A stretch of DNA of 64,000 nucleotides from a virus. Lineage: Duplodnaviria > Heunggongvirae > Uroviricota > Caudoviricetes. The stretch covers positions 1-64,000 of the IMG/VR virus record IMGVR_UViG_3300023184_000076; one strand, 5' to 3'. Every line of letters begins with the position of its first letter. Position 1 is the stretch's first letter. The notes below the pieces were generated by a model, which had not been told where the DNA came from, ran no database searches, and worked only from the letters and a program-made list of their open reading frames with translations. The position numbers and the translations under genes were made by a program. Positions 3,221-50,642 of the stretch are shown here, in pieces.

Positions 3221-4126
3221 TTATTTGTTCAGGTTTAAAAACAATCCTGAACCACCTGCTACCGTTGTTGGTAATTTACCGTCCCAAGCGGATGCCTTTA
3301 AGTACTCAATATACATAGGTGTTATTTGACTTTGTTTGATCTTAATTGAAAGTGCCGAAGCATTTGCGTTAATTATAGTTTCTGCAGAATCAGCTCTTGC
3401 CACGGCCACCTTACGTCTTCCTTCAGAGATTGCGGCGATTGCCTGTTGTTCTGACGCTTCCGCTTGTTGGATTGCCTTTGTCTTTGCGATGATCGCCTCC
3501 TGTAATGTTTCAGGTGGTGTTATATTTGTTCTCAATTGAGACACATTAAACCATTTAGATAACCTAACATTACATTCCGCAACAATTGCTGATTCAAACG
3601 CTTGTCGGTGATTAAAAATACTATCAACCTCCCAAGTATTCGCAACATCATTAACTGCTCCGATAATTGCGTTTTTCAACCATCCTTGTTCAACATCTTT
3701 AATTGGTCGTCTCAAGTTTACAAACATATCACCAATCGCATCCTCACGTAATGAGTAGTTGAATGTTGGTTTGATAGTTGCACCAAATCCACCTTTTAAG
3801 ATTACAGATTGATCGTCATACTCAATGTGTTGTTGGAAGATTGGGAATTCTAATACTTGTGTTGTCCAAGTGTTATATACAACCCAACCCGTTTTGTATT
3901 GGTAATTTGATACACCACGTTCTGAACCACTTAAATTAACAACAATTCCTTTGTTTCCAGCATCAATTCTTTCCAATGAATACGGTTGTACTCCACTAAC
4001 TAAAAGACCTACCACAACAACCAAAACTGGTTTTAAAAATGGCATATTCACCTCATTTTTTACGTTTCTTAAAAACATAAACACTCCTACGATCACCGAG
4101 ATCACTAAAATTGCAATACTAATCAT
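3221..4126 (-). CDS. SPFH/band-7 (prohibitin/HflC-like) membrane protein
   Basis: N-terminal TM helix, SPFH-like core, C-terminal Ala/Glu-rich coiled segment (AIQQAEASEQQAIAAISEGRRKVAVARA) typical of band-7 proteins. Confidence 0.6.
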   Translation of the reverse strand: MISIAILVISVIVGVFMFLRNVKNEVNMPFLKPVLVVVVGLLVSGVQPYSLERIDAGNKGIVVNLSGSERGVSNYQYKTGWVVYNTWTTQVLEFPIFQQHIEYDDQSVILKGGFGATIKPTFNYSLREDAIGDMFVNLRRPIKDVEQGWLKNAIIGAVNDVANTWEVDSIFNHRQAFESAIVAECNVRLSKWFNVSQLRTNITPPETLQEAIIAKTKAIQQAEASEQQAIAAISEGRRKVAVARADSAETIINANASALSIKIKQSQITPMYIEYLKASAWDGKLPTTVAGGSGLFLNLNK

Positions 4127-7753: not shown

Positions 7754-9154
7754 TTATTTATTCCTGTTGTAATCATCACACAATTTCCAAATTTCTTTTT
7801 TTGTAATTGATGTTTTACCTGTTTTACTTTTTAACACATTTTCCGTGTTTTTATCAAATTTACCATTTTTAGTAGTTTTTAAACAAGCTTGTAATGCAAA
7901 TATCTCATCGTCTTCATCATCTTTACACCCAAGACTGTAAGTACCATTACAACTTTTATATACCGTTTTATCTTCCTCACCTGCACCTCCAACTTTCGCA
8001 ACATTTTTACATTTTGCATCTTTTGGGTTTTTTTCACAATATACTCTTAATTTTTCCGCACATTCTTCAGGATTTTTTTCACAATAATCTTCAGCTTCAG
8101 ATTGTGCGTAGTTTTTAGTCATGTCAACTAATGATGTCGCAATTGGTTCCCACCCATAATCAAAGTCACCATCAAGGGCTTCTAATAATGATTCGTCAAA
8201 TGACTTTTCATACACATCACTCACTTTACAAAAATCGGCAGGACTTTTTAATGACTTAAATACCTTATAAATTGCATCTTCATCTGTTCCTAAACCTTCC
8301 ATAGCATGAAATAATTTACCAGAAAGTGCTCTTGCTTGATCATCGGTTAAAAATCTTTTCCATTTTTTTCTATCGGGACTTGTTTTACACATATCAAATA
8401 ATCTTGTGATCATTCCCATGTCATCATCTTTTGTCATACCCCACACACCTAATGCGGTGATACCTATTACCCCTAATGCTACCCAACCAACAGGACCTAA
8501 ACCTAAAAAAGTTGCTGCCGCTGCCGTTTCTCCACCTACCGCCGCAGCCGCTCCCGCACCCGCAACTTCAGCACCTACAACTTCCGCACCTGTTGCCGCA
8601 GCGACCTCAGCTCCCGCCAATTCAGCTCCCGCAACTTCAGCTCCCGCAACTTCAGCTCCCGCAACTTCAGCTCCCGCAACTTCAGCTCCCGCAACTTCAG
8701 CACCTGTGGATTCAATCCCCGCAAGTTCCGAACTTGAAGCAACATTTTTTCCACCACCAACAACTGACTTAGTGGTTTGTAACTCACCAGCGGTATTTGC
8801 AGTTTTTTCAATATTTTTAGTAGATGTAAGATCTTTAACCATATCAGCTTCTTTTTCAGGTCTGTTAATCCATTCAGATCCTTTAGGTACTTTACCTTTA
8901 TCAACTGCAGAGTCAAAAATATCCCCATCAGGTGTTTTATACCTTCTTGGTTTATTATCGGAAGTACCAAAATCATCATAGTCGTCGGTTAATCCTTTTA
9001 AATAATCCCTACCTTTTAATACGTCAGCATAACCATCTTGTTCTTTTAATTTCTTACGAGTTTTTGTGTTTTCATTTAAGGTTTTAGAACGATCATACCC
9101 CATAAGGTTTTTAATCCTATTCAATTCCTCAAGTATAATTTTATTATCTTTCAT
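7754..9154 (-). CDS. membrane-anchored protein with (AGAEV)n repeat, TM helix and a C-terminal annexin-type repeat
   Basis: KLFHAMEGLGTDEDAIYKVFKSL ... VYEKSFDESLLEALDGDFD matches the annexin repeat consensus (K-G-x-G-T-D-E ... Y..L...L.GDFE). TM segment FLGLGPVGWVALGVIGITALGVWGM. Start moved to MKDNKIIL. Confidence 0.55.
   Translation of the reverse strand: MKDNKIILEELNRIKNLMGYDRSKTLNENTKTRKKLKEQDGYADVLKGRDYLKGLTDDYDDFGTSDNKPRRYKTPDGDIFDSAVDKGKVPKGSEWINRPEKEADMVKDLTSTKNIEKTANTAGELQTTKSVVGGGKNVASSSELAGIESTGAEVAGAEVAGAEVAGAEVAGAEVAGAELAGAEVAAATGAEVVGAEVAGAGAAAAVGGETAAAATFLGLGPVGWVALGVIGITALGVWGMTKDDDMGMITRLFDMCKTSPDRKKWKRFLTDDQARALSGKLFHAMEGLGTDEDAIYKVFKSLKSPADFCKVSDVYEKSFDESLLEALDGDFDYGWEPIATSLVDMTKNYAQSEAEDYCEKNPEECAEKLRVYCEKNPKDAKCKNVAKVGGAGEEDKTVYKSCNGTYSLGCKDDEDDEIFALQACLKTTKNGKFDKNTENVLKSKTGKTSITKKEIWKLCDDYNRNK
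8566..8700. repeat. tandem 18-nt repeat (cagctcccgcaacttcag x5, with degenerate flanking copies) encoding the (AGAEV)n tract
   Basis: Visible directly in sequence; GC-rich. Confidence 0.7.
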
Positions 9155-9182
9155 AAAACTTTTTATTATAAATACTTGGTAA

Positions 9183-9219
9183 AACAAAAAACCCCCACCA
9201 TTTCTGATGAGGGTTTTAT
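9183..9219. terminator. hairpin AAAACCCCCACCA-tttc-TGATGAGGGTTTT
   Basis: 11/13 bp stem with A/U-rich flanks. Confidence 0.4.
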
Positions 9220-11348: not shown

Positions 11349-11377
11349 AAAAAAGTGACCCCATCAAGTTAATGGGA
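11349..11377 (-). terminator. hairpin GTGACCCCatcaagttaatGGGAGTCAC plus U-run
   Basis: Overlaps stop of RNA ligase gene. Confidence 0.5.
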
Positions 11378-12502
11378 GTCACCCACGTTATTTTTTTCAC
11401 CATAGATCAAGTAGTCAGGGTTGATTACTTTAGAAACCTTTCTACGGTCACCAGTTACGGATTTCACAACTATACCTTCGTGAGGAACTTTAGTACCTTC
11501 TATGAAGTTACCGAAGACGTATTTGTCTTGTTCTTCTTTATCCCAATTACCTTGGTATAACAACTCAACCTGTGGTAACTCTAAACAATCAAAGTGTACA
11601 GTTTCATTTATGTATGGTTGGTATTCTCCATCAACTTCAACATCAAATCCTACAAACTTAACATCAGTCAAACCGTACTCGTAGTTTTTTTGTATACCCG
11701 CACCATATATCTCTCCGTATATAACAACACCATCAGTTAAGTTAAATGGTTCGTAAGTATCTTTTACGTGAGCCCACAACTTACCTCTTATATCGTAGTT
11801 GTTCGCCACAGTTTTCCACACATCAGTATCGTAGAAACCTTGAGAGTCAGATCCTTTTTCAACGTTGTGAGAACCATAGACATATTCAAACGCCGCCCAT
11901 TGATTACCAAATAGTACTTTAACACGATCCCACAAAGAAAGTTTTTTCTTTCTAACTATTCCGTAACGAGCGTTAGTTCCGTGAAGTTTACGAGTTATAA
12001 CAACTTCATCTTCCTCATTGAACATATCAGGTACATTCTTTTGGTTAGGGAATTTGTAGTAAACTTTGAAGTTAGGGTTTTGGTGGTATTTTATTTTACG
12101 TCCACCAACACTCAACTGAACGGTCTTAACTGGTGGTTCGTATTTGGTAACTCCCAATATAGTCATCATGTCATCACCATCATTAACATTGTTCTCCAAT
12201 GATTTTGGTGCCAAATATTTGAATGGTATTAACAAACACTCAGAGTAAACTCCACGAAGTTTTACAGTACGAACTCTTTGACCTTTACGAAGGTAGTTAG
12301 TAACTTCCATCAAGTCAGATAATGCCTGAGGTATTACCGCATCTGTGGTCGCAACAACAACCTTATCTCCAGATTGGTATTCACCTTTTTTAGTTATGGC
12401 GTTCCATCCACCAACTAACACTTGTTCTATGTTATCCGCCCCTTCTATTGGTTTAACCTCTCCGATTACACCAACGTAACATACACTATTTTGATTTTCC
12501 AT
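11369..12502 (-). CDS. ATP-dependent RNA ligase, Rnl2-like nucleotidyltransferase
   Basis: Motif I KLHGTN (KxHGxN lysine-adenylate site as in T4 Rnl2 KIHGTN), motif IV EGIVVK, motif V K..KVINPDY. Confidence 0.65.
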   Translation of the reverse strand: MENQNSVCYVGVIGEVKPIEGADNIEQVLVGGWNAITKKGEYQSGDKVVVATTDAVIPQALSDLMEVTNYLRKGQRVRTVKLRGVYSECLLIPFKYLAPKSLENNVNDGDDMMTILGVTKYEPPVKTVQLSVGGRKIKYHQNPNFKVYYKFPNQKNVPDMFNEEDEVVITRKLHGTNARYGIVRKKKLSLWDRVKVLFGNQWAAFEYVYGSHNVEKGSDSQGFYDTDVWKTVANNYDIRGKLWAHVKDTYEPFNLTDGVVIYGEIYGAGIQKNYEYGLTDVKFVGFDVEVDGEYQPYINETVHFDCLELPQVELLYQGNWDKEEQDKYVFGNFIEGTKVPHEGIVVKSVTGDRRKVSKVINPDYLIYGEKNNVGDSH

Positions 12503-24278: not shown

Positions 24279-24551
24279 TTATTTATTTTTTAATGTTTCT
24301 ATGTGATGTTCTAAATACCATAACGCTTTTTTAAGGTCCTGTAATTCTTTATCCGAATCTTTCTTACCCGCCCTTGATATATACTTTACCGTATTTCCTA
24401 ATGAGAATCCTAATTCCCAAGCATCAATTACTTTGATTGCCTCATAAGGGTTATCTTCTCCTCCGTAATGTTGGGGGTGATTAACTTGTTCTATTTTTGG
24501 TGGGGGGCACATACAAAGTACGTTAGCTCCACATACACATTCTTTTTCCAT
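24279..24551 (-). CDS. DUF3310-family phage protein
   Basis: PQHYGGEDNPYEAIKVIDAW ... GNTVKYISRAGKK ... DLKKALWYLE. Confidence 0.65.
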   Translation of the reverse strand: MEKECVCGANVLCMCPPPKIEQVNHPQHYGGEDNPYEAIKVIDAWELGFSLGNTVKYISRAGKKDSDKELQDLKKALWYLEHHIETLKNK

Positions 24552-25669
24552 TAGTCTTCTCTATATTCTTTTAATAATTCATCATTTGAAATGGTCCCAT
24601 ATTTCTCATTAAGACCTTCCATATCAACATCCTTATTCATCATTATTTTAACATCGTAGATTTGATCGGTAGTTATTAAAGATATGTCAATTTCTTTAAT
24701 AATTTTGTATGGGTCAGCATTTGATCCAGGTCTTCTATCCTCAACATAACCTTTCCAATTTTTTGCGGTATCTCTTGGAATTCGAATTGATGCCCCACGA
24801 TCTGAAACCCCCCAACTAAATTTATCAATTGATTGTGTTTCAAATTTACCAGTTAAACGGAGATTGTTATCTGACCCGTAAGCTTTTATATGTGCTTCAT
24901 GTCTTACCTCAAACGCATTAAACAATGATATAAAATATTTTTCGTTACCATCATTTCTCATTTTATCTGTTGAGAAGTTCGTATGAAGTCCAGACCCGTT
25001 CCATTCCCCTTTTTGAATTGGTTTTGGATGTAGAATAATCCTATAATTATATTTTTCAGAAATTTTAAACAAAAAGTACCTAGTCATCCACAAATCATCA
25101 CCCGCTTTTAATTTACCTTTTGTAAACACTTGGTATTCCCATTGACCTAACGCAACCTCAGCGTTAATCCCTGTAATGTCAATTCCATATTTTAAACACA
25201 TATCCATATGTTCTTCAACAAAATCTCTTCCGGCAACATATTCTCCAACACCACAATAATATTTACCTTGTGGTTCCAAGTTATTTTCGTCGTGACCTAA
25301 AATACATTTGTTTTTTCTATCGTAGATAAAATATTCTTGTTCAAACCCAAACCACAAATCTTCTTGATCTCCAATTAGTTCTGATCTTGTATTAGTTTCG
25401 TGTGGAGTACCATCAGAATTCATTACTTCACACAACACGTAAATTGTATTTGTATGATCAGAAAAATAATGTCTAACAGGTTTTAAAATACAATCAGAAC
25501 TATTACCTTCCGCTTGTAATGTTGATGACCCATCAAAGTTCCATTCAGGAAAATTATTTAGAACTAAACAGTTTTTAATTTGTTCATAGTCCATAATTTT
25601 AACTTTACTTCTTAAATTTGGTTCAGGCGTATACCCATCAATCCACACATATTCTAACTTAACTTTCAT
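24551..25669 (-). CDS. glnA: glutamine synthetase, type II-like (372 aa)
   Basis: N-terminal signature FDGSSTLQAEGNSSDCIL and ATP-site signature KPIQKGEWNGSGLHTNFS both match the GS PROSITE patterns; EYVWIDG N-terminus. Confidence 0.85.
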   Translation of the reverse strand: MKVKLEYVWIDGYTPEPNLRSKVKIMDYEQIKNCLVLNNFPEWNFDGSSTLQAEGNSSDCILKPVRHYFSDHTNTIYVLCEVMNSDGTPHETNTRSELIGDQEDLWFGFEQEYFIYDRKNKCILGHDENNLEPQGKYYCGVGEYVAGRDFVEEHMDMCLKYGIDITGINAEVALGQWEYQVFTKGKLKAGDDLWMTRYFLFKISEKYNYRIILHPKPIQKGEWNGSGLHTNFSTDKMRNDGNEKYFISLFNAFEVRHEAHIKAYGSDNNLRLTGKFETQSIDKFSWGVSDRGASIRIPRDTAKNWKGYVEDRRPGSNADPYKIIKEIDISLITTDQIYDVKIMMNKDVDMEGLNEKYGTISNDELLKEYRED

Positions 25670-36069: not shown

Positions 36070-36243
36070 ATGGAAGAAGAAACATACAACAAAACAGAAG
36101 CAACCCAAGTTACAGGTTGTAGAAAATGTAATCAAACCACAGGGAAAACACAAAAATTTGTTTTTATTACCGGTGGTATCATGTTTGCATTATCAATATA
36201 TGGGGCGGTTTCCTTATATAAAGACATTATGTCTTTATTTTAA
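36070..36243 (+). CDS. small membrane protein (57 aa, ...CRKCNQ...FVFITGGIMFALSIYGAVSLY), not in track
   Basis: Own translation. Confidence 0.3.
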   Translation: MEEETYNKTEATQVTGCRKCNQTTGKTQKFVFITGGIMFALSIYGAVSLYKDIMSLF

Positions 36244-37148
36244 GGTCTATCAAACCTAACAATCTGATTAATTAAAAGATCACCAATTTGTCCTGCTCTA
36301 AACCCTTTACCTTTAACTCTCAAAGGTTTTGAGGAATCAAAAAATTTAGGTAATTTAATATTTAATTCACCATCAGGATGAGGTATGTTGATATCCTCTT
36401 TCATAAGATCTTCATAGTTCAAGTAAGAATTATATATTAAATGTGGACCATTCTTAAAGAAACCATTTTCTTCCACTAAATTAATCCTTATTACCAAATC
36501 CCCGAACCTACCACTTCTAAAATCACCAACACCTGACATTTTTATGAACTGACCATCCTCAATCCCATGTGGTATTTTAACTTCAACTGTTTTCATTTCA
36601 TCTTTAGTCTCTGATCCATTACAAGCATAACAAGCATTTATGGTGATTTTACCTGTACCAGAACAAGTATCACAACTCATATTAACAACTTGTATAAACA
36701 TACCTGTACCCACTTGTCTCATTACACTACCAACACCGTCACAGGTTGTACATACTTTCTTTTCACCTCCCGTACCACCACAAGAATTACAATTAGTTTT
36801 TCTCTTATATGTTATTTGTTTGTTTCTACTTAAAAATGAATCCAACACACCTATGTTAACCGTTATAACACTACTGTGATTATCCTGTCTTTGTCGTTGT
36901 TGATTGAACGAATGAAACATATCGGCAAAATTACCACCAAATGGGTTATTCCGTTGATTATCGTATTGTTTTCGTTTACTTTCGTCTCCAATCGTATCAT
37001 AAGCGGCTGAGATCTTTTTAAACATCTCACCATCCCCACCTTTATCTGGATGATTTTCTTTGGCTAGGTTTCTATACGCCTTCTTAATGTCTTCTTGCGT
37101 CGCCTTTTCATCAACACCTAAAACCTCATAATAGTTATCATTATTCAT
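36240..37148 (-). CDS. dnaJ: DnaJ/Hsp40 co-chaperone
   Basis: J-domain with HPD (DYYEVLGV...HPDK), four CxxCxGxG zinc-finger repeats, C-terminal domain. Confidence 0.9.
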   Translation of the reverse strand: MNNDNYYEVLGVDEKATQEDIKKAYRNLAKENHPDKGGDGEMFKKISAAYDTIGDESKRKQYDNQRNNPFGGNFADMFHSFNQQRQRQDNHSSVITVNIGVLDSFLSRNKQITYKRKTNCNSCGGTGGEKKVCTTCDGVGSVMRQVGTGMFIQVVNMSCDTCSGTGKITINACYACNGSETKDEMKTVEVKIPHGIEDGQFIKMSGVGDFRSGRFGDLVIRINLVEENGFFKNGPHLIYNSYLNYEDLMKEDINIPHPDGELNIKLPKFFDSSKPLRVKGKGFRAGQIGDLLINQIVRFDRP

Positions 37149-42694: not shown

Positions 42695-43048
42695 TTAAAA
42701 TTTATATCTTGATCTTAATAAACTATCAACTTGTTTAGCATTAGCATCTTTAATCTCTTTCCCTTTTTGTTCGTAGTAATTATTTACCACTTCCTTCTTA
42801 ACTTTAATGTTAGATATTGTTGAATCAATTTTTTCAATCTCTTTTTTATATTCATTAATTGATTCATCTAATTTCTTTTGACTTTCAATCAACAAATTAA
42901 TGTCTTTATCTATTTGTTCTATTTTCTTTAGATCTTCTTTAGTCATACCATTTGATGGTGTCATTAAATCTAATATGAATAGATATACTATTATTGACCC
43001 AACAACAATTAAAATATACTTGAAATTATCATTTAAGAACTTTTTCAT
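42695..43048 (-). CDS. N-terminally TM-anchored coiled-coil protein
   Basis: TM helix ILIVVGSIIVYLFILDL then coiled coil. Confidence 0.5.
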   Translation of the reverse strand: MKKFLNDNFKYILIVVGSIIVYLFILDLMTPSNGMTKEDLKKIEQIDKDINLLIESQKKLDESINEYKKEIEKIDSTISNIKVKKEVVNNYYEQKGKEIKDANAKQVDSLLRSRYKF

Positions 43049-43644
43049 GACTCAGGAGTTTTCTTTCTTGATGCAATTACTTTAGACCACTTAGATTTGA
43101 ATTTCTCATAGTATTGTTTCAACTTATTTAAGAATTCTAAATAATCGTCATCAATCTTAGTCATTGTACCGTTTATGTATATACCATTTGTTTCTCCAAT
43201 TGAATAGAAAAACTCAACATCCAATTCAGTAATCTTACCTGACCACTCAACATTGTTTGAATATAGGTTTAATTTATTAAAGTCTACAATTTCAGATACC
43301 TCAGTAACAAAATCATCCATAGTTTCTTGGAACGCTTTCTTATCATCAGTAGTTAATTGTAGGTCTGATTTATCTTTACCATGAATAACAATAATACCAC
43401 CAGATATTCTATAACCCTTTGACTTGTCAGTTTTTACAACATCATCTTCTTTATTACCATCAGTTTCCTCAGGTTCCGCAGTCTCATATTCTTTAGGTTG
43501 ATCTTCGGTTGGTCCTTCCTCACCTTGTTCCAATATTAATCCGTGATTTTTTCTGATATGATTAATATCCTCAGTAATTAAATTTTTATTTAATAATTTT
43601 TTAGATGCCTCTATTAAATTTTTTATTTCATCGTGTCTATTCAT
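43045..43644 (-). CDS. hypothetical protein (199 aa)
   Basis: ORF. Confidence 0.5.
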   Translation of the reverse strand: MNRHDEIKNLIEASKKLLNKNLITEDINHIRKNHGLILEQGEEGPTEDQPKEYETAEPEETDGNKEDDVVKTDKSKGYRISGGIIVIHGKDKSDLQLTTDDKKAFQETMDDFVTEVSEIVDFNKLNLYSNNVEWSGKITELDVEFFYSIGETNGIYINGTMTKIDDDYLEFLNKLKQYYEKFKSKWSKVIASRKKTPES

Positions 43645-44242
43645 CTTCTATATTTTTTTTAAAATAATCAAAATCAAATGCCGGACTTAGATCCGTAACA
43701 TCTGTGGTGTAATTGCTTCTGGTAACAATACCATCAAATTGATTCACACCATTTACTTTAGTGTTATGTCCCACACATTTTTTACTAATGTTAAAATCTT
43801 CCATTAGTTTTTTACATATTAGTATGGTACTATCAATTTGAACTTCAGTATAAGGTTGCCATAAAAAATAATCCCTCCACTTACGCTCAAAAGCCTTTCC
43901 ATTATAAATATTACCAATCCAGTTAATGTATCTATTTTTTAATGGTTCTTTTTCTAACCAACCTAAATTTTCCAAAGAAACCGTAATTGACTTCTTAGAT
44001 ATGTTCTCATCTTTTATATACTTAGAATATTTTTTTGGTTCTAATAGCTCTATGATCTTACCATCACGGGTAACTATGTAGTTTGGTACTTTGTTATATT
44101 TTTTTCCATAACGATACTTTAGACCATTAATGTAGTCCACCGCAAATCTTGAGGTGTGAGATAAAATTATTTGAGTTTTACCTTTCTCCTCGCCTTCATA
44201 ATTGAAGTCCCCGAATTTTATGATATCTTCATCATTCATCAT
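43637..44242 (-). CDS. putative N-acetylmuramoyl-L-alanine amidase (amidase_2/PGRP-like), endolysin candidate
   Basis: IILSHTS, TVSLENLG and VGHNTKVNG segments resemble amidase_2 Zn-ligand regions; weak. Confidence 0.35.
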   Translation of the reverse strand: MMNDEDIIKFGDFNYEGEEKGKTQIILSHTSRFAVDYINGLKYRYGKKYNKVPNYIVTRDGKIIELLEPKKYSKYIKDENISKKSITVSLENLGWLEKEPLKNRYINWIGNIYNGKAFERKWRDYFLWQPYTEVQIDSTILICKKLMEDFNISKKCVGHNTKVNGVNQFDGIVTRSNYTTDVTDLSPAFDFDYFKKNIEDE

Positions 44243-45443
44243 TTTTTTTATATACTAATCTCTTAATACCATCATCAGTAGTTGTTGTAGTTATCGACTC
44301 ATCTCCAGTACCATTACTTTTCATATAGTATTCTTGATTCTCAAATAAATCATCATCAGATAACGGCTCCCAACTTTTTTCAACACTAATGGTTAAAGGT
44401 TCTCTTTGTACTATAGGTGCTTCAACAATTTTTTCTTCCTCCTCCTCTATATAATATGGTGTAAATGCTAATGCAGAAGGTTCATCATCATGTGATTCAG
44501 GAGATAATTTACCTTCTTCTCTTAGTTTTTTAACCCTTTCCCATACTTTTTTTACTTGGTCGGTACTTGGTCGGTACTTGGTCGGTACTTGGGGGGTAAC
44601 TTGGGGGGTAACTTGGGGGGTAACTTGGGGGGTAATACTTCCTTTTTTATTTTTTTTAAATGCTTGGTTAGTTGCAATAACTAAAGTAATTGCCAATGGA
44701 TCAAATACAAAAATTAAAAGTAAAATAAAAAGGTTCGCCACCTTCTTAACATCCCACCCTGAAATCTCACTAATATATTTAATAGATCCTAATTCGGTAC
44801 CTTCCAACTCCGCAGATTCCATATCAAGTATCTCAATATCTAATCTTGTAATACTATCATTCATACCATCAATACGAGTTGATACCTTATCCCTATTCTC
44901 TGTGGTCATTTTTAATTGATCTTCAAATGATTTACGGTTAGCATTATTTGCCCTTGTAATTAATTGACCTGTTTTTCTATCAACAGTTTGTGTTGTAGTA
45001 TTGTTAGATAAACCATCTCTTAACTTTGAAATATCTTTGTCTAAAAGGTCTTTTTCTTTTTGTAACTCATCTTTTATTTCTGTGAATCTTGTCTTCTTAA
45101 CTTCTATGTTTGCTATTTTTTTCTGACCAATCTCAAGTTTTGCAATATTCCCTTGAAACCCAGTGCTTAATAACCCATAGATCCCAAGTGAAGTAATTAA
45201 CGATAACGTCACAAGAGCAATTGTAAGATATACTTTTAACACTCCGTATGTTTCTTTCCACTTGTCGTGTAAGTATGTTGCAATCGCAATCTTAGATATC
45301 TCAAGAAATGAACCCATAATAATTACAGGTAACGCAACACCAACAAACACAACTGATAACCCCACCACACTGTAATAGGCTGCGGTTCCTGATAACCCAA
45401 GAGCACAAAATAATAAAAACCAAGGTAAAAATTTTTCTTTCAT
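44232..45443 (-). CDS. multi-TM membrane protein with coiled coil and (PQVT)4 repeat
   Basis: Three N-terminal TM helices, one TM before ITPQVTPQVTPQVTPQV. Confidence 0.55.
   Translation of the reverse strand: MKEKFLPWFLLFCALGLSGTAAYYSVVGLSVVFVGVALPVIIMGSFLEISKIAIATYLHDKWKETYGVLKVYLTIALVTLSLITSLGIYGLLSTGFQGNIAKLEIGQKKIANIEVKKTRFTEIKDELQKEKDLLDKDISKLRDGLSNNTTTQTVDRKTGQLITRANNANRKSFEDQLKMTTENRDKVSTRIDGMNDSITRLDIEILDMESAELEGTELGSIKYISEISGWDVKKVANLFILLLIFVFDPLAITLVIATNQAFKKNKKGSITPQVTPQVTPQVTPQVPTKYRPSTDQVKKVWERVKKLREEGKLSPESHDDEPSALAFTPYYIEEEEEKIVEAPIVQREPLTISVEKSWEPLSDDDLFENQEYYMKSNGTGDESITTTTTDDGIKRLVYKKNDE
44543..44640. repeat. tandem 11/12-nt repeats (ggtcggtactt x3; ggggggtaactt x3-4) encoding (PQVT)n
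   Basis: Direct inspection. Confidence 0.7.
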
Positions 45444-45492
45444 AGTAATTGTTATGTATTTATAAATATCAATATAAGGTATTTATATAATT

Positions 45493-45912
45493 ATGTCATT
45501 ACTTAGAGAATCAATACGTAAAGTTTTAATCTTAGAAAAGAAGATTGCACAGATAGTTACTACTATTGAAGTTACATTTAATTTAGAAGTGGATCGTATA
45601 CCTCACACCTATGAAAGATCCACACGGCCTGAATTAGAAAATACTGGATACAATCAAAGACCTATAGAAAGTAGGGAGATCAGAGAGATTATAATGATGG
45701 CTAAAACTGAAATAGCTGAAAAAATAATTAACCGTGAAATAAAGGAAGGTGAACGTTTTGTGATAAAGTCAGAAAAATGGGAATTAGCCATTCCTTTAGA
45801 CCCCATCCATGTGTCAGGTACAAATTGGATCTTACGAGTGTTTACCGTATTTAGAGAATCAAGAGAAAATCCATTTAGAGTTGGTAAGAACCAAATTGTA
45901 ATTTGGGTATAA
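45493..45912 (+). CDS. hypothetical protein (139 aa)
   Basis: ORF with terminator immediately downstream. Confidence 0.55.
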   Translation: MSLLRESIRKVLILEKKIAQIVTTIEVTFNLEVDRIPHTYERSTRPELENTGYNQRPIESREIREIIMMAKTEIAEKIINREIKEGERFVIKSEKWELAIPLDPIHVSGTNWILRVFTVFRESRENPFRVGKNQIVIWV

Positions 45913-45919
45913 AAATAAA

Positions 45920-46052
45920 ACCCCCCTTGGTACCAAGAGGGGAGTGTAGTTTCATCTTATCGCCAGGACAAGATTGAGGATTTTCACCTAGAGAACATCG
46001 TGTCTCATTCCGCCGAGTTGTAAGGGTAATCTCGGTTCAACCCTTTTCGTTT
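45920..46052 (-). ncRNA. candidate small non-coding RNA (~130 nt), GC-rich island with own promoter motif and intrinsic terminator
   Basis: No ORF on either strand. TATATTTG motif at 46059-46066 (minus sense) upstream. Hairpin CCCCTCTTGGTACCAAGGGGGG plus U-run at 45921-45942 downstream. GC-rich relative to flanks. Confidence 0.4.
45921..45942. terminator. hairpin CCCCCCTTGGtaCCAAGAGGGG, bidirectional (ends + gene 45493..45912 and the minus-strand candidate sRNA)
   Basis: GC stem flanked by A-run/T-run. Confidence 0.55.
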
Positions 46053-46058
46053 GTCTTA

Positions 46059-46066
46059 CAAATATA
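46059..46066 (-). promoter_or_regulatory. TATATTTG motif upstream of candidate sRNA
   Basis: No ORF downstream; terminator about 120 nt downstream. Confidence 0.4.
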
Positions 46067-46078
46067 TATCTTTTTTAC

Positions 46079-46366
46079 TTACAAACCTAACAATTCACCA
46101 ACTTTTTTAAAATGTTTTTCAATTTTGTTCAAAGCTGCGGTCGCTTTTTGTTTGGTATCGAAGTACACATAGAACTGACAACTTTCAGAATCAAAATCAC
46201 CATTAATCTTTAATGTGTTTTTAACAAAACTTTCAAAGTCATACGCACTATCCCAATTACGGAATGTGTTTTTGTTTGGGTAACCTGTTAATGTCCATTT
46301 GGCACCTTCCCATGTACCTTTGTCAATTGATAACCCTACGTTCTTGATTGTCTCTGTGTTTGTCAT
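46079..46366 (-). CDS. hypothetical protein; start moved to MTNTETIKN
   Basis: Promoter motif lies inside the longer track ORF. Confidence 0.5.
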   Translation of the reverse strand: MTNTETIKNVGLSIDKGTWEGAKWTLTGYPNKNTFRNWDSAYDFESFVKNTLKINGDFDSESCQFYVYFDTKQKATAALNKIEKHFKKVGELLGL

Positions 46367-46386
46367 AGTTGTTTTGTTTTGTTCTA

Positions 46387-46394
46387 CAAATATA
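46387..46394 (-). promoter_or_regulatory. TATATTTG motif upstream of 46079..46366
   Basis: 22 nt from ATG. Confidence 0.4.
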
Positions 46395-46424
46395 TAACAT
46401 TTATCCCAACCCACAAAATCTTTT

Positions 46425-46877
46425 TTAAATAAAATTATCTTCGTGTGTAAAACCCGCAGAATCAACCTTAGGTCCATTATCAATTAACATTTCAACTTTG
46501 ATCTCACCATCAACTAATCTTGACACAGAACAGAACTCAATTTCAACATCATCTTCAATATTTTTTTTGAATTCATTGTATTGGTCCTCATTTTCAAATG
46601 ACCCACATTGATTTGCGGGTGATTGATAAACTTTTAAACGGTAAGAACCAAATGGATTTTTAAGTTCCGAAACTTCATATATAAGATTGTCAAATTTATA
46701 ATTTTCAGTACCATCTTCAGTTATAAATTTCCCATTCTCATCTCTTTTTAATGTTTGAGAATAATGGTATCCACAATTATTACAATTCACATAATCTTCC
46801 CCCGTTTTATAATAAAAGTCGCTAAACGCCTCTTGTTTACAATTTGGACATTCAATATAATCAATTACACTTCCCAT
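46425..46877 (-). CDS. zinc-ribbon protein (CPNCK...CNNCGY)
   Basis: CxxC...CxxC N-terminus. Confidence 0.5.
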   Translation of the reverse strand: MGSVIDYIECPNCKQEAFSDFYYKTGEDYVNCNNCGYHYSQTLKRDENGKFITEDGTENYKFDNLIYEVSELKNPFGSYRLKVYQSPANQCGSFENEDQYNEFKKNIEDDVEIEFCSVSRLVDGEIKVEMLIDNGPKVDSAGFTHEDNFI

Positions 46878-46889
46878 GTTTTTTATTTT

Positions 46890-47690
46890 TTATAAGTAAT
46901 CAAATAGTTCTGAACTTTCATTTCTCAATCTTCTAAGGGCTCTTTCCTTGATCTGTCTAACTCGTTCTTTAGTTAAACCAAAGTCACCCCCAATATCTTC
47001 AAGTGTTCTTGGTGTTCCACTTAACCCGAAGTAATCCTCAATGATCACTTTCTCTCTGTCATCTAACACATTCAATAAAGATAATAATTTGTCTTTCAAA
47101 ATGTCTTTGGTGTTAAATCCTGCATCAGGAGCAAGTGCGTCAGGGTTTGCAATCATATCAACCAACGTATCACCTTCTTCATTGATTGTCATGTCCAAAT
47201 CAATCATTGATGGTAATGAAGTAAACTTAGACTCTAATTCTTTACCTGTGATCTCAATTTCTTTCTTAGCCTTATGTAAGTCCTGAACAACATTAACAGG
47301 GAGTCTAATTGTTCTTGAATTATCATTTAGTGACTGTATGATCGATTGTTTAACCCACCAAACCGCATATGATATAAAACGTAAATCTTTATGCCAATCA
47401 AAATGTTTAATCGCTTTCATCAAACCTAAATTACCCTCAGCAATAAGATCAGATAAATCTAAACCTTGATTTTGATACTGTTTTGCCACCGTAATAACAA
47501 AACGTAAATTACCAACTAATAACTCAGACTCAATTTGTTCTCTCTCACGTTTTGAAGTGTCCTCAGACTTCATCTTAAGAGCAAGTTCTTTCTCTCTGTC
47601 AGGTGTCATTACTTTTATTCTACGAATATCTTTCAGATAGTGTTGAATCTCTTCTTGATTAATTGGAATCCCTAGGTTTTTGTCTTTCAT
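46890..47690 (-). CDS. RNA polymerase sigma-70 family factor
   Basis: Region 2 (GNLGLMKAIKHFDWHKDLRFISYAVWWVKQSI) and region 4.2 HTH (LEDIGGDFGLTKERVRQIKERALRRLR). Confidence 0.85.
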   Translation of the reverse strand: MKDKNLGIPINQEEIQHYLKDIRRIKVMTPDREKELALKMKSEDTSKREREQIESELLVGNLRFVITVAKQYQNQGLDLSDLIAEGNLGLMKAIKHFDWHKDLRFISYAVWWVKQSIIQSLNDNSRTIRLPVNVVQDLHKAKKEIEITGKELESKFTSLPSMIDLDMTINEEGDTLVDMIANPDALAPDAGFNTKDILKDKLLSLLNVLDDREKVIIEDYFGLSGTPRTLEDIGGDFGLTKERVRQIKERALRRLRNESSELFDYL

Positions 47691-47698
47691 ATTTTTAA

Positions 47699-48223
47699 TT
47701 AATAGTTTTTTGAATATTCGTCTAATTTACTTTTTTCTTCTTTAGTTAATGAATCTATACCTTGTGAAGTGATTTTATCCAAAAGTTCGTCCATTGTCAA
47801 TTCACATTCTTTTTTGGGTAAAAATTTCATTATCGTATCTGATATACGATTGAATTCTTCTCCACCCTCAGTTTCCAAGTTGAACTCAATCTTTTTTGGT
47901 GGTGTTTGTTTTTTCTTATTAGTATTCCTTAACGTAAGTAAATGTAATAAGTTGTCTTGATCAAAGTTAGATGCGATATTTTTAGTCTTTTGATTTAATA
48001 AATAATTAAAATTACTGTATTCGGCGGACACTAAACATAAAAAGTCATCAATCTCATCAACCGAGAAATCACTTGCAAAGTGGTAAATTGCGTGTTTATC
48101 ACCAAACATATATTTAACTTGATTTGATGACATAATCTTTGATAACTCAGCCCCAATGTTTTCAGTTGTTACATCGGGGGTTTTCATATCTTCATTGTGG
48201 TATACAAAAAGTAAGTAATTCAT
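47699..48223 (-). CDS. hypothetical protein (174 aa) immediately upstream of the sigma factor
   Basis: ORF with own promoter motif. Confidence 0.55.
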   Translation of the reverse strand: MNYLLFVYHNEDMKTPDVTTENIGAELSKIMSSNQVKYMFGDKHAIYHFASDFSVDEIDDFLCLVSAEYSNFNYLLNQKTKNIASNFDQDNLLHLLTLRNTNKKKQTPPKKIEFNLETEGGEEFNRISDTIMKFLPKKECELTMDELLDKITSQGIDSLTKEEKSKLDEYSKNY

Positions 48224-48244
48224 ATCTTAATTTTAATTGTTCTA

Positions 48245-48252
48245 CAAATATA
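48245..48252 (-). promoter_or_regulatory. TATATTTG motif upstream of 47699..48223 (and thereby the sigma factor gene)
   Basis: 22 nt from ATG. Confidence 0.4.
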
Positions 48253-48269
48253 CAGATAAAATCCTATTC

Positions 48270-50642
48270 CTACAACACTTTCGAAATATTATTTTCTTTT
48301 TTGATCTTAACGATAGTGTCTGCCCATTGACTAACCATTGGGTTATGGGTTATAACAAAGATTTTTTCAAAATAATCTTTAATCTTAATAAAGAACTCAG
48401 ATACCATTTCTAAGTTATCATTACTAATTTTACCAAAAACCTCATCAAAAACAACTATGTTTGGTTTTGGTAATGAACATACCTTACTCAATACCGATCT
48501 TAACGCTAGTGACGCAATTGTTCTTTCGTAACCAGATCCTGACACCATTAATTTTTCAATACCACTACTATTATCAATCATTAAGAATTCAACTTCGTTC
48601 TTATCGTTAATCCTAATTTCCAATTTGAAGTAACAACTATCCTCCATCAATCTTTGCAACTCAGAATTAATTAAAGGCATCATTGTTTTCATAATAATTT
48701 TTGATAGTCCGTTCTTACCAAAGGCCTCCATGTATATTTTATAAATTCTTTCCTTCTCCTCCTCCTCTTTGATCTTAACAATTAACTTTTTATTGTTATC
48801 AATTTTATCATTACAAGTTTTGATTTGATATTCATTATTTGTAATGATGGTGTTTTTTTGTTTCTTTAGGTGTTCAAGTTCATCTAACCTTAAGTCAGCC
48901 TTAATCAACATTGAATCGATCTGAGTATTCTCTTTAATCTTATCTTGAACATCACCCCAACGATCCAACTTACCTTTTAAAGACCCAATCTTCAAATCAC
49001 AACTTTCAATACTTAATTCGTATTTTTCTTTGATTAGTTTGTTTTTTTCATACTCGTCAAAGTCTTTTTTAAGTTGTACAAATGCCTGCTCTTTGATGGT
49101 TAAATCCTTCATTAACCCCACTTTTTGGTCTTTATGCATGATATAACCATCAAGTTCCGCAATTTTTTGCTGGGTAATTGATGCGTTCATTAACTCAATT
49201 CCACAATGTTCACATTTAATACCATCACTCACAGAACTCTTCAATTTCTCAATTTCTTTGATCTGTGTTTCAAGTTCAATTTTAGATTTGAACACGTCAT
49301 TGTATTCCTCTTTAATTTTATCGTGATCATCTTCATGATAAAATTCCTTTGGTTCAACAACTTTAAGTTCATCTAACTTTTGTTGGAACGTTGTTTTCTC
49401 TCTACCAAAACCATCGATTTCTTCTTGAGTCTTAATCGGGTTCATCAAACTGATTTCCTTATCAATGTCTCCGTGTTTCTTCTTCAACATATCATCACGA
49501 TACTCTTTTCCCTTAACAATTTTATCATCAATATCGTTAAGTTCCAATTTGGTCGAATCAATTTGATCATTTAATTCACCGATTTTTGTTGTTAAAGATT
49601 CGTTGTCCGTTTTTAATTCTTCCGAATTATAAATGTTAGACATCTTTGATTTATTAAATTCAGAATAAATCTCTTTACCAACTTCCTCTTTCCGTTTTAA
49701 AAACTCAAGTCCCATAAATCTTGACAACACCTGTCCTCTTGCGGTTGGTTTTGACTCCAATAACTCCTCAAGATTAGTTGCGGTTGTAAGTATGGTCATT
49801 AAGAAATCTTCTTTGGTCCCAATGGAATTTTTAATGAACGCTTCAGTTTCCCTTCTTTGTTCCCCCGTGAAATTCTGTAAACTACCATCAGACATTTTTT
49901 TAAAAAAGTCCAATTCTGTTTTTACATTCCATTCTCCTTTTTTAGAAAGTTTTCTTTCGATCTTTCTAAGGATAATGTAATCTTCACCATCAATTGTGAC
50001 TTCACCTTTAACAACTACCGAGTCTTTATCGGTAAATCGATTAAAGATTTCTTCAGCCTTTGTAGTCTTTGTTGTCTCATTAAAAAATAAAAACAACAAT
50101 AAATCCACAGAAAGAACGGTCTTCCCACCAAAGTTAGGCGGATCTGATTCAACGACAACGACTCCGTTACATTTATCAAAATCCATTCTTTGGTTCTCAC
50201 CATACGATAAGAAGTTAGAAAACTCGATGTTTCTGATATACCACTTTTTGAATTGTGTTGTTTCAGTTTCATCCTCTTTCATTCGGTTCTCAACCATTCT
50301 GTTAATACCTAAGATATCTTCAGAATAGTTTGTGTACCCTTTAGACTCCAAAAATTTCTTTAATAGATCAAGTTGATAATTAACATCAGTTACGTTAACG
50401 GACACATCAACGCTTTGCATTGTATCTGTGTCAACGTTTTTAACCTTTGTTAATACATTCACATTGGTAGTGTTATATTTCTTTTGGAAATAATGTTTAA
50501 CACTCTTAATCTTATCTTGTGTGAAATTTTCTTGTAGATCTTCCCACACAACTTGTATTGTTGGGTTCTCGTACTTTGAAAAGTCTAAATCTTTTATCAT
50601 TATATTGTAATTAAATAATTTTGGTGGGTTGAACAGGTCCAT
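48270..50642 (-). CDS. sbcC: SbcC/Rad50-like ATPase
   Basis: N-terminal P-loop (PNFGGKT), long coiled coil with central CxxC zinc hook (KCEHCG), C-terminal signature/Walker B/H-loop (SGSGYERT, IVVFDEVF, VITHN). Confidence 0.7.
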   Translation of the reverse strand: MDLFNPPKLFNYNIMIKDLDFSKYENPTIQVVWEDLQENFTQDKIKSVKHYFQKKYNTTNVNVLTKVKNVDTDTMQSVDVSVNVTDVNYQLDLLKKFLESKGYTNYSEDILGINRMVENRMKEDETETTQFKKWYIRNIEFSNFLSYGENQRMDFDKCNGVVVVESDPPNFGGKTVLSVDLLLFLFFNETTKTTKAEEIFNRFTDKDSVVVKGEVTIDGEDYIILRKIERKLSKKGEWNVKTELDFFKKMSDGSLQNFTGEQRRETEAFIKNSIGTKEDFLMTILTTATNLEELLESKPTARGQVLSRFMGLEFLKRKEEVGKEIYSEFNKSKMSNIYNSEELKTDNESLTTKIGELNDQIDSTKLELNDIDDKIVKGKEYRDDMLKKKHGDIDKEISLMNPIKTQEEIDGFGREKTTFQQKLDELKVVEPKEFYHEDDHDKIKEEYNDVFKSKIELETQIKEIEKLKSSVSDGIKCEHCGIELMNASITQQKIAELDGYIMHKDQKVGLMKDLTIKEQAFVQLKKDFDEYEKNKLIKEKYELSIESCDLKIGSLKGKLDRWGDVQDKIKENTQIDSMLIKADLRLDELEHLKKQKNTIITNNEYQIKTCNDKIDNNKKLIVKIKEEEEKERIYKIYMEAFGKNGLSKIIMKTMMPLINSELQRLMEDSCYFKLEIRINDKNEVEFLMIDNSSGIEKLMVSGSGYERTIASLALRSVLSKVCSLPKPNIVVFDEVFGKISNDNLEMVSEFFIKIKDYFEKIFVITHNPMVSQWADTIVKIKKENNISKVL

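Follow-up and report, generated by a model that had tools for sequence, protein, structure and literature searches.

What is encoded in the 165-bp gap at positions 45913-46078 of IMG/VR record IMGVR_UViG_3300023184_000076, a Caudoviricetes phage of which we analyzed the first 64,000 nucleotides (nt; hereafter the window)? The minus strand holds nearly all genes of the window, and the gap is flanked by two convergent open reading frames (ORFs), one of 139 aa on the plus strand (c5) and one of 95 aa, counted from its ATG, on the minus strand (46079-46366). Sequence comparison indicates that the gap encodes a stable and highly structured small RNA (sRNA) of about 135 nt on the minus strand, which extends from a predicted promoter to its own terminator. 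Its proposed partner is c5, the tail-to-tail neighbor (Table 1).

The RNA gene, its relatives, and its structure

In the initial annotation, the gap was a candidate phage sRNA gene, a non-coding unit free of ORFs and richer in GC than its surroundings that is transcribed from a −7 promoter of its own and ends in a terminator, and these features held up on closer inspection. The body of the RNA contains no ORF of 25 aa or more; the terminator is clipped by two marginal minus-strand ORFs of 25-26 aa, and the sole AUG-led frame in the RNA, 6 codons long, is not kept in relatives. The GC content is 0.45 at 45950-46049 and 0.46 for the covariance-model match, compared to 0.26-0.37 on either side. 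The octamer TATATTTG conforms to TAnnTTTG, the −7 element of the housekeeping sigma factor in Bacteroides and Flavobacterium promoters. The predicted transcription start lies at about 46050-46053, and a possible −33 TTTG is found at 46082-46085, with a short spacer of 15 nt. As had been noted, the same octamer precedes protein genes: it recurs 5' of the 95-aa gene (46387-46394) and of a DUF6576 gene (48245-48252), the next two upstream transcription units, and the window holds 15 copies against 8.9 expected, a count reached in 3 of 100 shuffles. The strong hairpin reported at the other end, together with its U-tract UUUUAUUUUU, is the top terminator-like site within 43000-49000 and directly abuts the c5 stop codon. 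This terminator is possibly bidirectional; read on the plus strand, the hairpin has a poor U-tract.

A DNA similarity search of 50,697 deposited phages gave no match, and all matches to the neighboring sigma factor were below 38% identity, indicating that the phage has no cultured relative. Relatives were found in IMG/VR via the two flanking proteins, and in these the element is kept at 85-98% identity. Searches with a 16-mer and then with a pattern of the 5' part recovered 94 stretches representing 63 distinct versions, and a covariance model (R1) built from 58 of the recovered versions yielded 89 matches in 89 loci, one per locus, with a single copy in the window (156.9 bits, E = 3.5e-40). 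The family is present in about 100 IMG/VR and JGI contigs of freshwater Bacteroidota phages, whose hosts are probably freshwater Flavobacteriales. As the initial annotation had suggested, we looked for the island in related phages; it is kept there as one block, comprising the promoter or a preceding stop codon, the RNA body, and the terminator, with compensatory changes, and is better conserved than the adjoining coding sequence. The RNA is 82-99% identical in relatives, the c5 proteins of which share 61-96% identity (43-75% at third codon positions); with locus L009, for example, the RNA shares 88% identity, as opposed to 64% (protein), 66% (DNA), and 47% (third codon positions) for c5. The RNA is better conserved than its flanking genes in a dozen further loci.

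Among 185,579 species-representative genomes, only one true copy was found; it is truncated and resides on a 5.7-kb Crocinitomicaceae contig of a metagenome-assembled genome, between a type IX secretion system (T9SS)-type hydrolase gene and two genes of unknown function (287 and 243 aa). Homologs of the 287-aa gene do not carry the element, which argues that the RNA is a phage feature; on the same grounds, a host origin, a phage attachment site (attP), and a host RNA mimic were ruled out. Weak covariance-model matches upstream of relatives of the 95-aa gene (L015-L021) were also set aside, as they represent another, non-homologous locus, probably a 24-aa ORF followed by a terminator.

Searching the whole window against Rfam 15 gave no match at gathering thresholds, and at E ≤ 10 over 45800-46200 there were four sub-threshold matches only, none of them to a ribozyme, riboswitch, tRNA, or transfer-messenger RNA (tmRNA) family; the top one, L10_leader (25.5 bits versus a threshold of 44), was aligned on the terminator. 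For ten related loci, Rfam returned tRNAs only, and the same search picks up 12 tRNAs in locus L142. A literature search for the sequence of the RNA produced chance matches only and no description of it. The RNA family is thus phage-specific and outside Rfam. The folding energy of the single sequence is unremarkable (z = −0.89 for the minus strand and −0.05 for the plus strand) and uninformative, and the case for the RNA consequently rests on comparison.

According to that comparison, the near-invariant 5' core (P1/PK, P3, and P4) is followed by P5, a hairpin of variable sequence, then by a linker with conserved GAAAC, and finally by the terminator. In a structure-blind MAFFT alignment, 96.4% of the cells are paired, as opposed to 41-54% with slid partners, and 17 pairs show two-sided changes, a number reached by none of 500 shuffles; in the model-fitted alignment of 67 distinct sequences, 97.9% of the cells are paired, and 20 pairs show two-sided changes. 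Covariation, G-U pairs included, supports P3, P4, P5, the terminator, and the outer pair of P1. All four pairs of P3 show double-sided changes (GAGA/UCUC, GGUG/CACC, UGAAC/GUUCA, and GGG/CCC), as do all nine of the terminator stem and five of the eight of P5, where U-G pairs are frequent. The outer pair of P4 is AU in 33 sequences, GU in 23, and GC in 10, with variants such as GGC-GGAA-GCC and GGUUU-GGU-AAACC, and that of P1 is A-U in 34, U-A in 23, and other in 10 of the 67 distinct sequences, its GGG/CCC being invariant. Read from the other strand, the many G-U pairs would turn into C-A mismatches, which identifies the minus strand as the RNA. Immediately 3' of P5, GAAA is universal in the family, and nearly every member ends in the covarying terminator. 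No site complementary to the linker was found elsewhere in the window, and by eye, the sequence of P5 is not linked to the presence of c5.

The 5' segment reads (A/U)GGGUUGAACCGAGAUUACCC(U/A)nACAACUCGG, and the CCGAG...CUCGG complementarity pointed out earlier is present in it as PK, a second stem interleaved with P1, leaving the loops UGAA, AUU, and the A-rich third loop UACAA. When IMG/VR was scanned without any constraint on the ten PK positions, the loci recovered were the same except for one added variant (L131), in which A-U is changed to G-U. In a metagenome scan that required a change at the A of PK, all 14 matches carried G opposite an unchanged U, and none carried C or U. These variants are compatible with pairing but include no compensatory double change, and we therefore regard this almost invariant 5' end as a candidate H-type pseudoknot. 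A second complementarity noted before, GGGUUGA/UCAAUCU, is likewise present: GGGUUG (46038-46043) can pair with CAAUCU (45971-45976), and the positions opposite its G residues vary between U and C only. The 7-bp pairing is compatible in 94% of the cells, by way of G-U to G-C changes only and with no double-sided change, and it is in conflict with P1, with the outer pair of P4, which covaries, and with the base of P5. A closing helix proposed by RNAalifold is a further competitor. This pairing may reflect a second conformer in competition with P1 and the P5 base, or else a tertiary contact between UUG and CAA, and its variation could also be a by-product of wobble-mediated evolution.

Table 1. 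Positions of the RNA, its parts, and associated features in the window and in other loci
Feature	Location	Strand	Description
−7 promoter box	46059-46066	−	TATATTTG; Bacteroidota sigma-A type TAnnTTTG
Conserved structured RNA	45913-46048	−	pseudoknot core, three hairpins, linker, terminator; about 135 nt
P1	46023-46044	−	stem 1 of candidate H-type pseudoknot; AGGGU (46040-46044) with ACCCU (46023-46027)
PK	46013-46035	−	stem 2; CCGAG (46031-46035) with CUCGG (46013-46017), interleaved with P1
P3 hairpin	45991-46006	−	GAGA(C)/(G)UCUC, loop containing CACGA
P4 hairpin	45977-45989	−	AGG-UGAAAAU-CCU
P5 variable hairpin	45954-45974	−	AUCUUGUC-CUGGC-GAUAAGAU
Single-stranded linker	45943-45953	−	GAAACUACACU; conserved
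Intrinsic terminator	45913-45942	−	stem 45921-45942 (9 bp, GC-rich), then U-tract 45913-45920, UUUUAUUUUU
c5	45493-45912	+	139-aa protein of unknown family, convergent with RNA; proposed partner
c0	44232-45443	−	about 400 aa, four membrane helices, coiled coil
Sigma factor	46890-47690		
RNA ligase	11369-12502	−	PF09414 and PHA02142 OB-fold domain
Nucleotidyltransferase	2087-2896	−	PolyA_pol head; candidate CCA-adding enzyme, 269 aa
Type-2 RNA	L134 3412-3566	−	
Type-2 RNA	L150 6793-6927	−	
Type-2 RNA	L154 12166-12219	−	
Composite RNA	L242 920-1095	+	convergent c5 at 1096-1515 (−)
Sole bacterial copy	L124 3019-3133	+	truncated pseudoknot core without P5 or terminator

Expression of the RNA and its coupling to c5

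Gene order was established by ORF calling and clustering of 79 distinct loci. The recurrent order is the DUF6576 protein, the sigma factor, an optional small gene, the RNA with its terminator, an optional convergent c5, c0, and an amidase. The RNA starts 0-5 nt past a stop codon, mostly that of the sigma-factor gene, in 46 of 70 versions, and its own TAnnTTTG box lies 11-28 nt (mode 15) upstream of P1 in 24 of the 70, the window included. The host housekeeping sigma factor uses such a box as its −7 element, and the RNA is therefore probably made early by the unmodified host polymerase. At about half of the loci, as in the window, the RNA is followed by a convergent gene, and c0 follows on the same strand about 60 nt past the terminator in at least 25 loci. 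In more than 25 loci, a motif, TT(G/A)ATATTTAT or (T/G)ATATTTAT, stands about 20 nt before the start of c0 (region 45444-45492 of the window), and a similar sequence, GTATTTATA, precedes c5; this motif is distinct from TAnnTTTG and may be a promoter for the phage-encoded sigma factor. Having a conserved upstream motif of its own, c0 probably also has its own promoter, independent of read-through past the RNA terminator. From this motif and the convergent next gene, we infer that the RNA acts in trans rather than in cis.

The c5 protein matches none of the sequence profiles of Pfam, NCBIfam, PADLOC, and the PDB, and its one match in PHROGs is weak (E = 0.003) and to a family of unknown function. 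Two AlphaFold2 models (predicted local distance difference test scores of 77 and 82) have an N-terminal helix, two more helices, and a four-stranded sheet; c5 is a soluble alpha/beta protein and not a small hydrophobic peptide. A Foldseek comparison of the models with the PDB gave nothing significant, a second list from the model comparison was diluted by longin/roadblock folds, and there is neither a sequence match to ToxN/AbiQ nor a Kid/MazF-like fold. The RNase-toxin-like fold that the models suggest for c5 is a lead, not a result. The invariant residues of c5 include H38, R42, S93, T118, R121, and Q134.

There is strong genomic coupling of c5 to convergent sRNAs. At the best 80 c5 loci in IMG/VR, a convergent sRNA gene is found in 76 (95%), 18 with the pseudoknot RNA and 58 with a second type of RNA (type 2), and neither is found in four. 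Conversely, c5 is nearby at 36 of the 68 evaluable pseudoknot-RNA loci (53%). Where the RNA lies outside the slot between the sigma factor and c0, it always adjoins c5 (L063/069, L071/115, L075/111, L090/092/119, L081/108, and L242). Distant homologs of c5 (40-55% identity) in other contexts adjoin a type-2 unit, not the pseudoknot RNA; one of them stands beside a T4-like capsid gene. Another, together with its type-2 sRNA, lies within a group of 12 clustered tRNA genes that run on the other strand (L142 1-3316), a hint that the c5/sRNA system could be connected with tRNA biology.

Type-2 RNAs form a second small-RNA family outside Rfam and are almost always convergent with a c5 homolog. A TAnnTTTG promoter is followed by two to four hairpins with loops of about 19 nt, GGnAACGAUUnAGAUACAA, the last hairpin being the terminator; a middle hairpin with a CGAAA loop is often present. 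In 58 of the loci L160-L239, the type-2 RNA lies just downstream of the c5 match. The two designs are also found joined: in the composite RNA of L242, a promoter precedes the core (P1/PK/P3/P4), which is followed by a short hairpin and by a pair of type-2 hairpins, the latter of them serving as the terminator, and the L075/L090 group has a type-2-like loop in the tail of the RNA. Such composites indicate that the two RNA designs are modules of one system. The pseudoknot and type-2 designs can replace each other or be combined, and the RNA also occurs by itself. A hybrid RNA occupies the same sigma-to-c0 slot downstream of c5 in L140, L205, and L168 (e.g., L140 2957-3115, minus strand), consisting of a leader homologous to that of L009 and L041, a long closing stem, a hairpin with a CGAAAC loop, a GGUGAAAAAAU segment, and one type-2 motif; the R1 model does not recognize it.

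Possible functions of the RNA

The single most likely model, to which we assign a probability of roughly 0.4 on the strength of sequence and analogy, is that the RNA would be an early-made antidote or regulator of c5. It would be produced early in infection, from the host-type promoter or at the end of the sigma-factor operon, and would act in trans by binding a protein, its partner being the c5 encoded tail-to-tail with it, much as ToxI acts on ToxN and RCd22 on AbiF. Of the c5 loci, 95% have an sRNA, whereas c5 is found at only 53% of the RNA loci, an asymmetry typical of a toxin whose antidote is sometimes orphan. Phages that have lost c5 would retain the RNA as an orphan antitoxin, or because its core serves another target that is independent of c5.

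Direct binding of a toxin by its RNA antitoxin is known from ToxIN-type systems, phage pseudo-ToxI, and prophage AbiF/RCd22 (PMC3401426, PMC3475682, PMC12373285). Like the type III RNA antitoxins (ToxI/ToxN, CptIN, and TenpIN) and phage pseudo-ToxI, the RNA described here is small, predicted to be pseudoknotted, and ends in a terminator (PMC3401426, PMC3475682). It shares with them the coupling to a small protein (c5, whose models have RNase-toxin-like features), the occurrence in or use by phages, and the capacity to exist without the protein. In contrast to type III systems, the RNA is present in a single copy rather than as tandem 34-45-nt repeats, it is convergent with c5 rather than upstream on the same strand and co-transcribed with a terminator between, and c5 does not belong to the ToxN/AbiQ/CptN/TenpN endoribonuclease family. 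Given the absence of tandem repeats, the convergent arrangement, and a c5 that is not ToxN-like, the RNA/c5 pair is not a type III member; the type-2 RNAs, unlike the pseudoknot RNA, do carry two to four repeated hairpin loops. RCd22 (abiF-motif RNA), of the Clostridioides difficile prophage AbiF system, is also a phage-borne structured non-coding RNA (ncRNA) beside a protein, toxic in the AbiF case, which it neutralizes by direct binding (PMC12373285). The type-2 RNAs resemble it in their repeated conserved loop, whereas the RNA motif, the protein family (Abi_2 versus c5), and the orientation differ, and the RNA of the window has no repeated motif.

Several observations weigh against an antidote or regulator of c5. 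At 32 of the 68 evaluable RNA loci, c5 is not nearby, so the core must be useful without c5. Much of the synteny could stem from shared descent within one phage clade, and an RNA that senses a ligand or is catalytic would likewise account for the nearly invariant core and the possible alternative pairing. The convergent, single-copy layout departs from the repeats-before-toxin order of type III systems, and the type-2 loop motif, the one most tightly tied to c5, is absent from the RNA of the window (position weight matrix score −1.2). Rather tentatively, we also propose that the RNA and c5 form a new phage RNA-protein module of RNA-based toxin and immunity in phage-phage or phage-host conflict. 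RNase-toxin-like c5 proteins would in that case always stand tail-to-tail with a promoter-to-terminator sRNA built from two interchangeable modules, the pseudoknot core and the GGnAACGAUUnAGAUACAA hairpins; the sRNA would serve as antidote, immunity factor, or cofactor, and phages with the RNA only would be immune to c5-armed competitors or hosts.

It is unlikely, in our estimate, that the RNA works in trans independently of c5, its core being a decoy, sponge, or inhibitor of a conserved host factor (a defense nuclease, an RNase, RNA polymerase, or the ribosome) and c5 merely sharing an accessory slot at the operon boundary. Such a role would accommodate the half or so of the RNA loci that lack c5, as well as a core that stayed invariant while phage proteins diverged to 35-60% identity, a pattern that points to a partner on the host side that evolves slowly. 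Early expression, whether driven by a host-type promoter or as the last part of the sigma-factor operon, is in keeping with it, and the RNA ligase and CCA-adding-like enzyme of the phage suggest that it is engaged in RNA-level conflict with its host. However, c5 accompanies the RNA into new genomic contexts in six independent cases, the composite RNAs join the core to c5-linked hairpins, and no host homolog or target can be named, the one truncated bacterial copy aside. A riboswitch-like attenuator in cis, in which an aptamer core gates the terminator and thereby controls read-through into c0 and the amidase or antisense transcription of c5, is more doubtful. The anatomy resembles that of H-type pseudoknot aptamers (SAM-II, SAM-V, preQ1-II, and fluoride), with a core of about 75 nt, interleaved stems, an A-rich third loop, invariant junctions, covarying variable peripheral stems, and a terminator that always follows directly, and c0 comes next on the same strand in the loci counted above. 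GGGUUG also has two possible partners, ACCC of P1 and CAAYYY at the P5 base, which might make it a switch between two states; the latter pairing is compatible in 94% of cells, and the closing helix offered by RNAalifold competes as well. Yet there is no sequence or covariance-model similarity to any of these aptamers or to any Rfam riboswitch, and the alternative pairing lacks double-sided covariation. No gene consistently lies downstream (none directly follows on the same strand in the window and about half of the loci), and a promoter-like motif precedes c0 itself. Between the aptamer and the terminator lie a variable hairpin and a linker but no conserved anti-terminator, and 24 of the 70 versions stand alone, each running from promoter to terminator.

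Bacillus prophages carry convergent pairs of a toxin and an antisense RNA, among them the type I pairs bsrG/SR4 and txpA/RatA, in which the toxins are short hydrophobic peptides and the antitoxins act via an extended 3' overlap. We consider it improbable that the RNA and the c5 mRNA likewise overlap at their 3' ends, through the hairpin or by read-through from c5, and that the resulting duplex controls c5 mRNA stability. A small protein gene and a promoter-to-terminator sRNA gene are indeed set tail-to-tail in phage DNA with touching terminators, the U-tract abutting the c5 stop codon for both sRNA types, and the poor plus-strand U-tract means that c5 transcripts may enter the RNA gene. But the overlap here is a hairpin at most, unless c5 reads through; c5 is not one of the small hydrophobic toxins of type I; no conserved interaction with the c5 5' region emerged when the RNA was scanned with duplexfold; and a core too conserved for antisense, covarying hairpins, and survival of the RNA without c5 are left unexplained. 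The RNA also recalls 3' untranslated region (3'UTR)-derived or terminator-embedded bacterial sRNAs in its dual expression, from an mRNA 3' end or its own promoter, and in sharing an operon terminator. Those sRNAs mostly work via short single-stranded seeds and are poorly structured upstream of the terminator, whereas this RNA is almost fully structured, and target complementarity was found neither for the linker in the window nor by duplexfold in the c5 5' region. Still less probable is a self-cleaving ribozyme, a processing signal, or an exonuclease-resistant structure with a role in defining or protecting the 3' end of that early operon. The element begins 0-5 nt past a stop codon in most loci and has a compact, pseudoknotted 5' end with invariant junction nucleotides, but no Rfam ribozyme family matched even at E ≤ 10, the promoter-driven stand-alone copies need no processing of an upstream mRNA, and the terminator alone would protect the 3' end. 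The tRNA-like or decoy cloverleaf raised in the initial annotation, with GGGUUGA/UCAAUCU as acceptor stem and three arms, is very improbable. A four-way junction can be drawn, the acceptor pairing is compatible in most cells of the alignment, and the nucleotidyltransferase, which had been called a CCA-adding enzyme and plausibly is one by its PolyA_pol head domain, occurs together with an RNA ligase. However, ARAGORN found no tRNA or tmRNA gene in the window, and Rfam gave no tRNA (RF00005) or tmRNA match. The T-loop (UUCRA) and D-loop are lacking, as had been recognized from the start, and so is a 3' CCA. The acceptor pairing clashes with the covariation-supported P1, outer pair of P4, and base of P5 and shows no compensatory change: the covariation of U77 with P4 contradicts its last pair, A12-U77, and its 3' half coincides in part with the base of P5, which covaries too. 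A resemblance to an RNA anti-CRISPR of the solitary-repeat kind, which would mimic a CRISPR repeat of the host, may lie in the GUUG...ACAAC ends and in a 9-nt stretch, GAUUACCCU, that presumably corresponds to the complement of a Cas13b repeat; this stretch is predicted to be paired in the pseudoknot.

Neighboring genes and significance

Besides the RNA, the window carries genes of related interest. The RNA ligase and the nucleotidyltransferase constitute an RNA/tRNA repair toolkit, and no tRNA gene was detected in the phage region. c0, which stands ahead of the amidase, may be a lysis or holin-like factor; at 44552-44650, it contains a tandem PQVT x4 peptide repeat (ITPQVTPQVTPQVTPQVPTKY) with a local spike in GC and GC skew. 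Accessory genes unusual for a phage are found at 24551-25669, 36240-37148, 3221-4126, and 7754-9187, all on the minus strand; these are glutamine-synthetase-like, a full DnaJ, SPFH/Band 7, and an annexin-repeat match, respectively.

Few structured ncRNAs are known from phages, nearly all of them in enterobacterial or Firmicutes systems. The coupling of a structured phage RNA with a small toxin-like protein has precedents in kind; the fold, the protein family, the tail-to-tail arrangement, the modular RNA pair, and the host phylum are new. The RNA is abundant in freshwater Bacteroidota phages, and its core is conserved as strictly as that of a riboswitch or ribozyme. The sister RNA type and the composite forms expose a modular design, c5 provides a clear, testable genetic partner, and the alignment and the R1 model make the question of function directly testable. 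If the core binds a host factor or a metabolite, it would represent a new aptamer class; if the RNA neutralizes or guides c5, RNA-antidote biology of the type III-like kind would reach a new protein fold, a new gene arrangement, a new phylum, and the phage side of the conflict.

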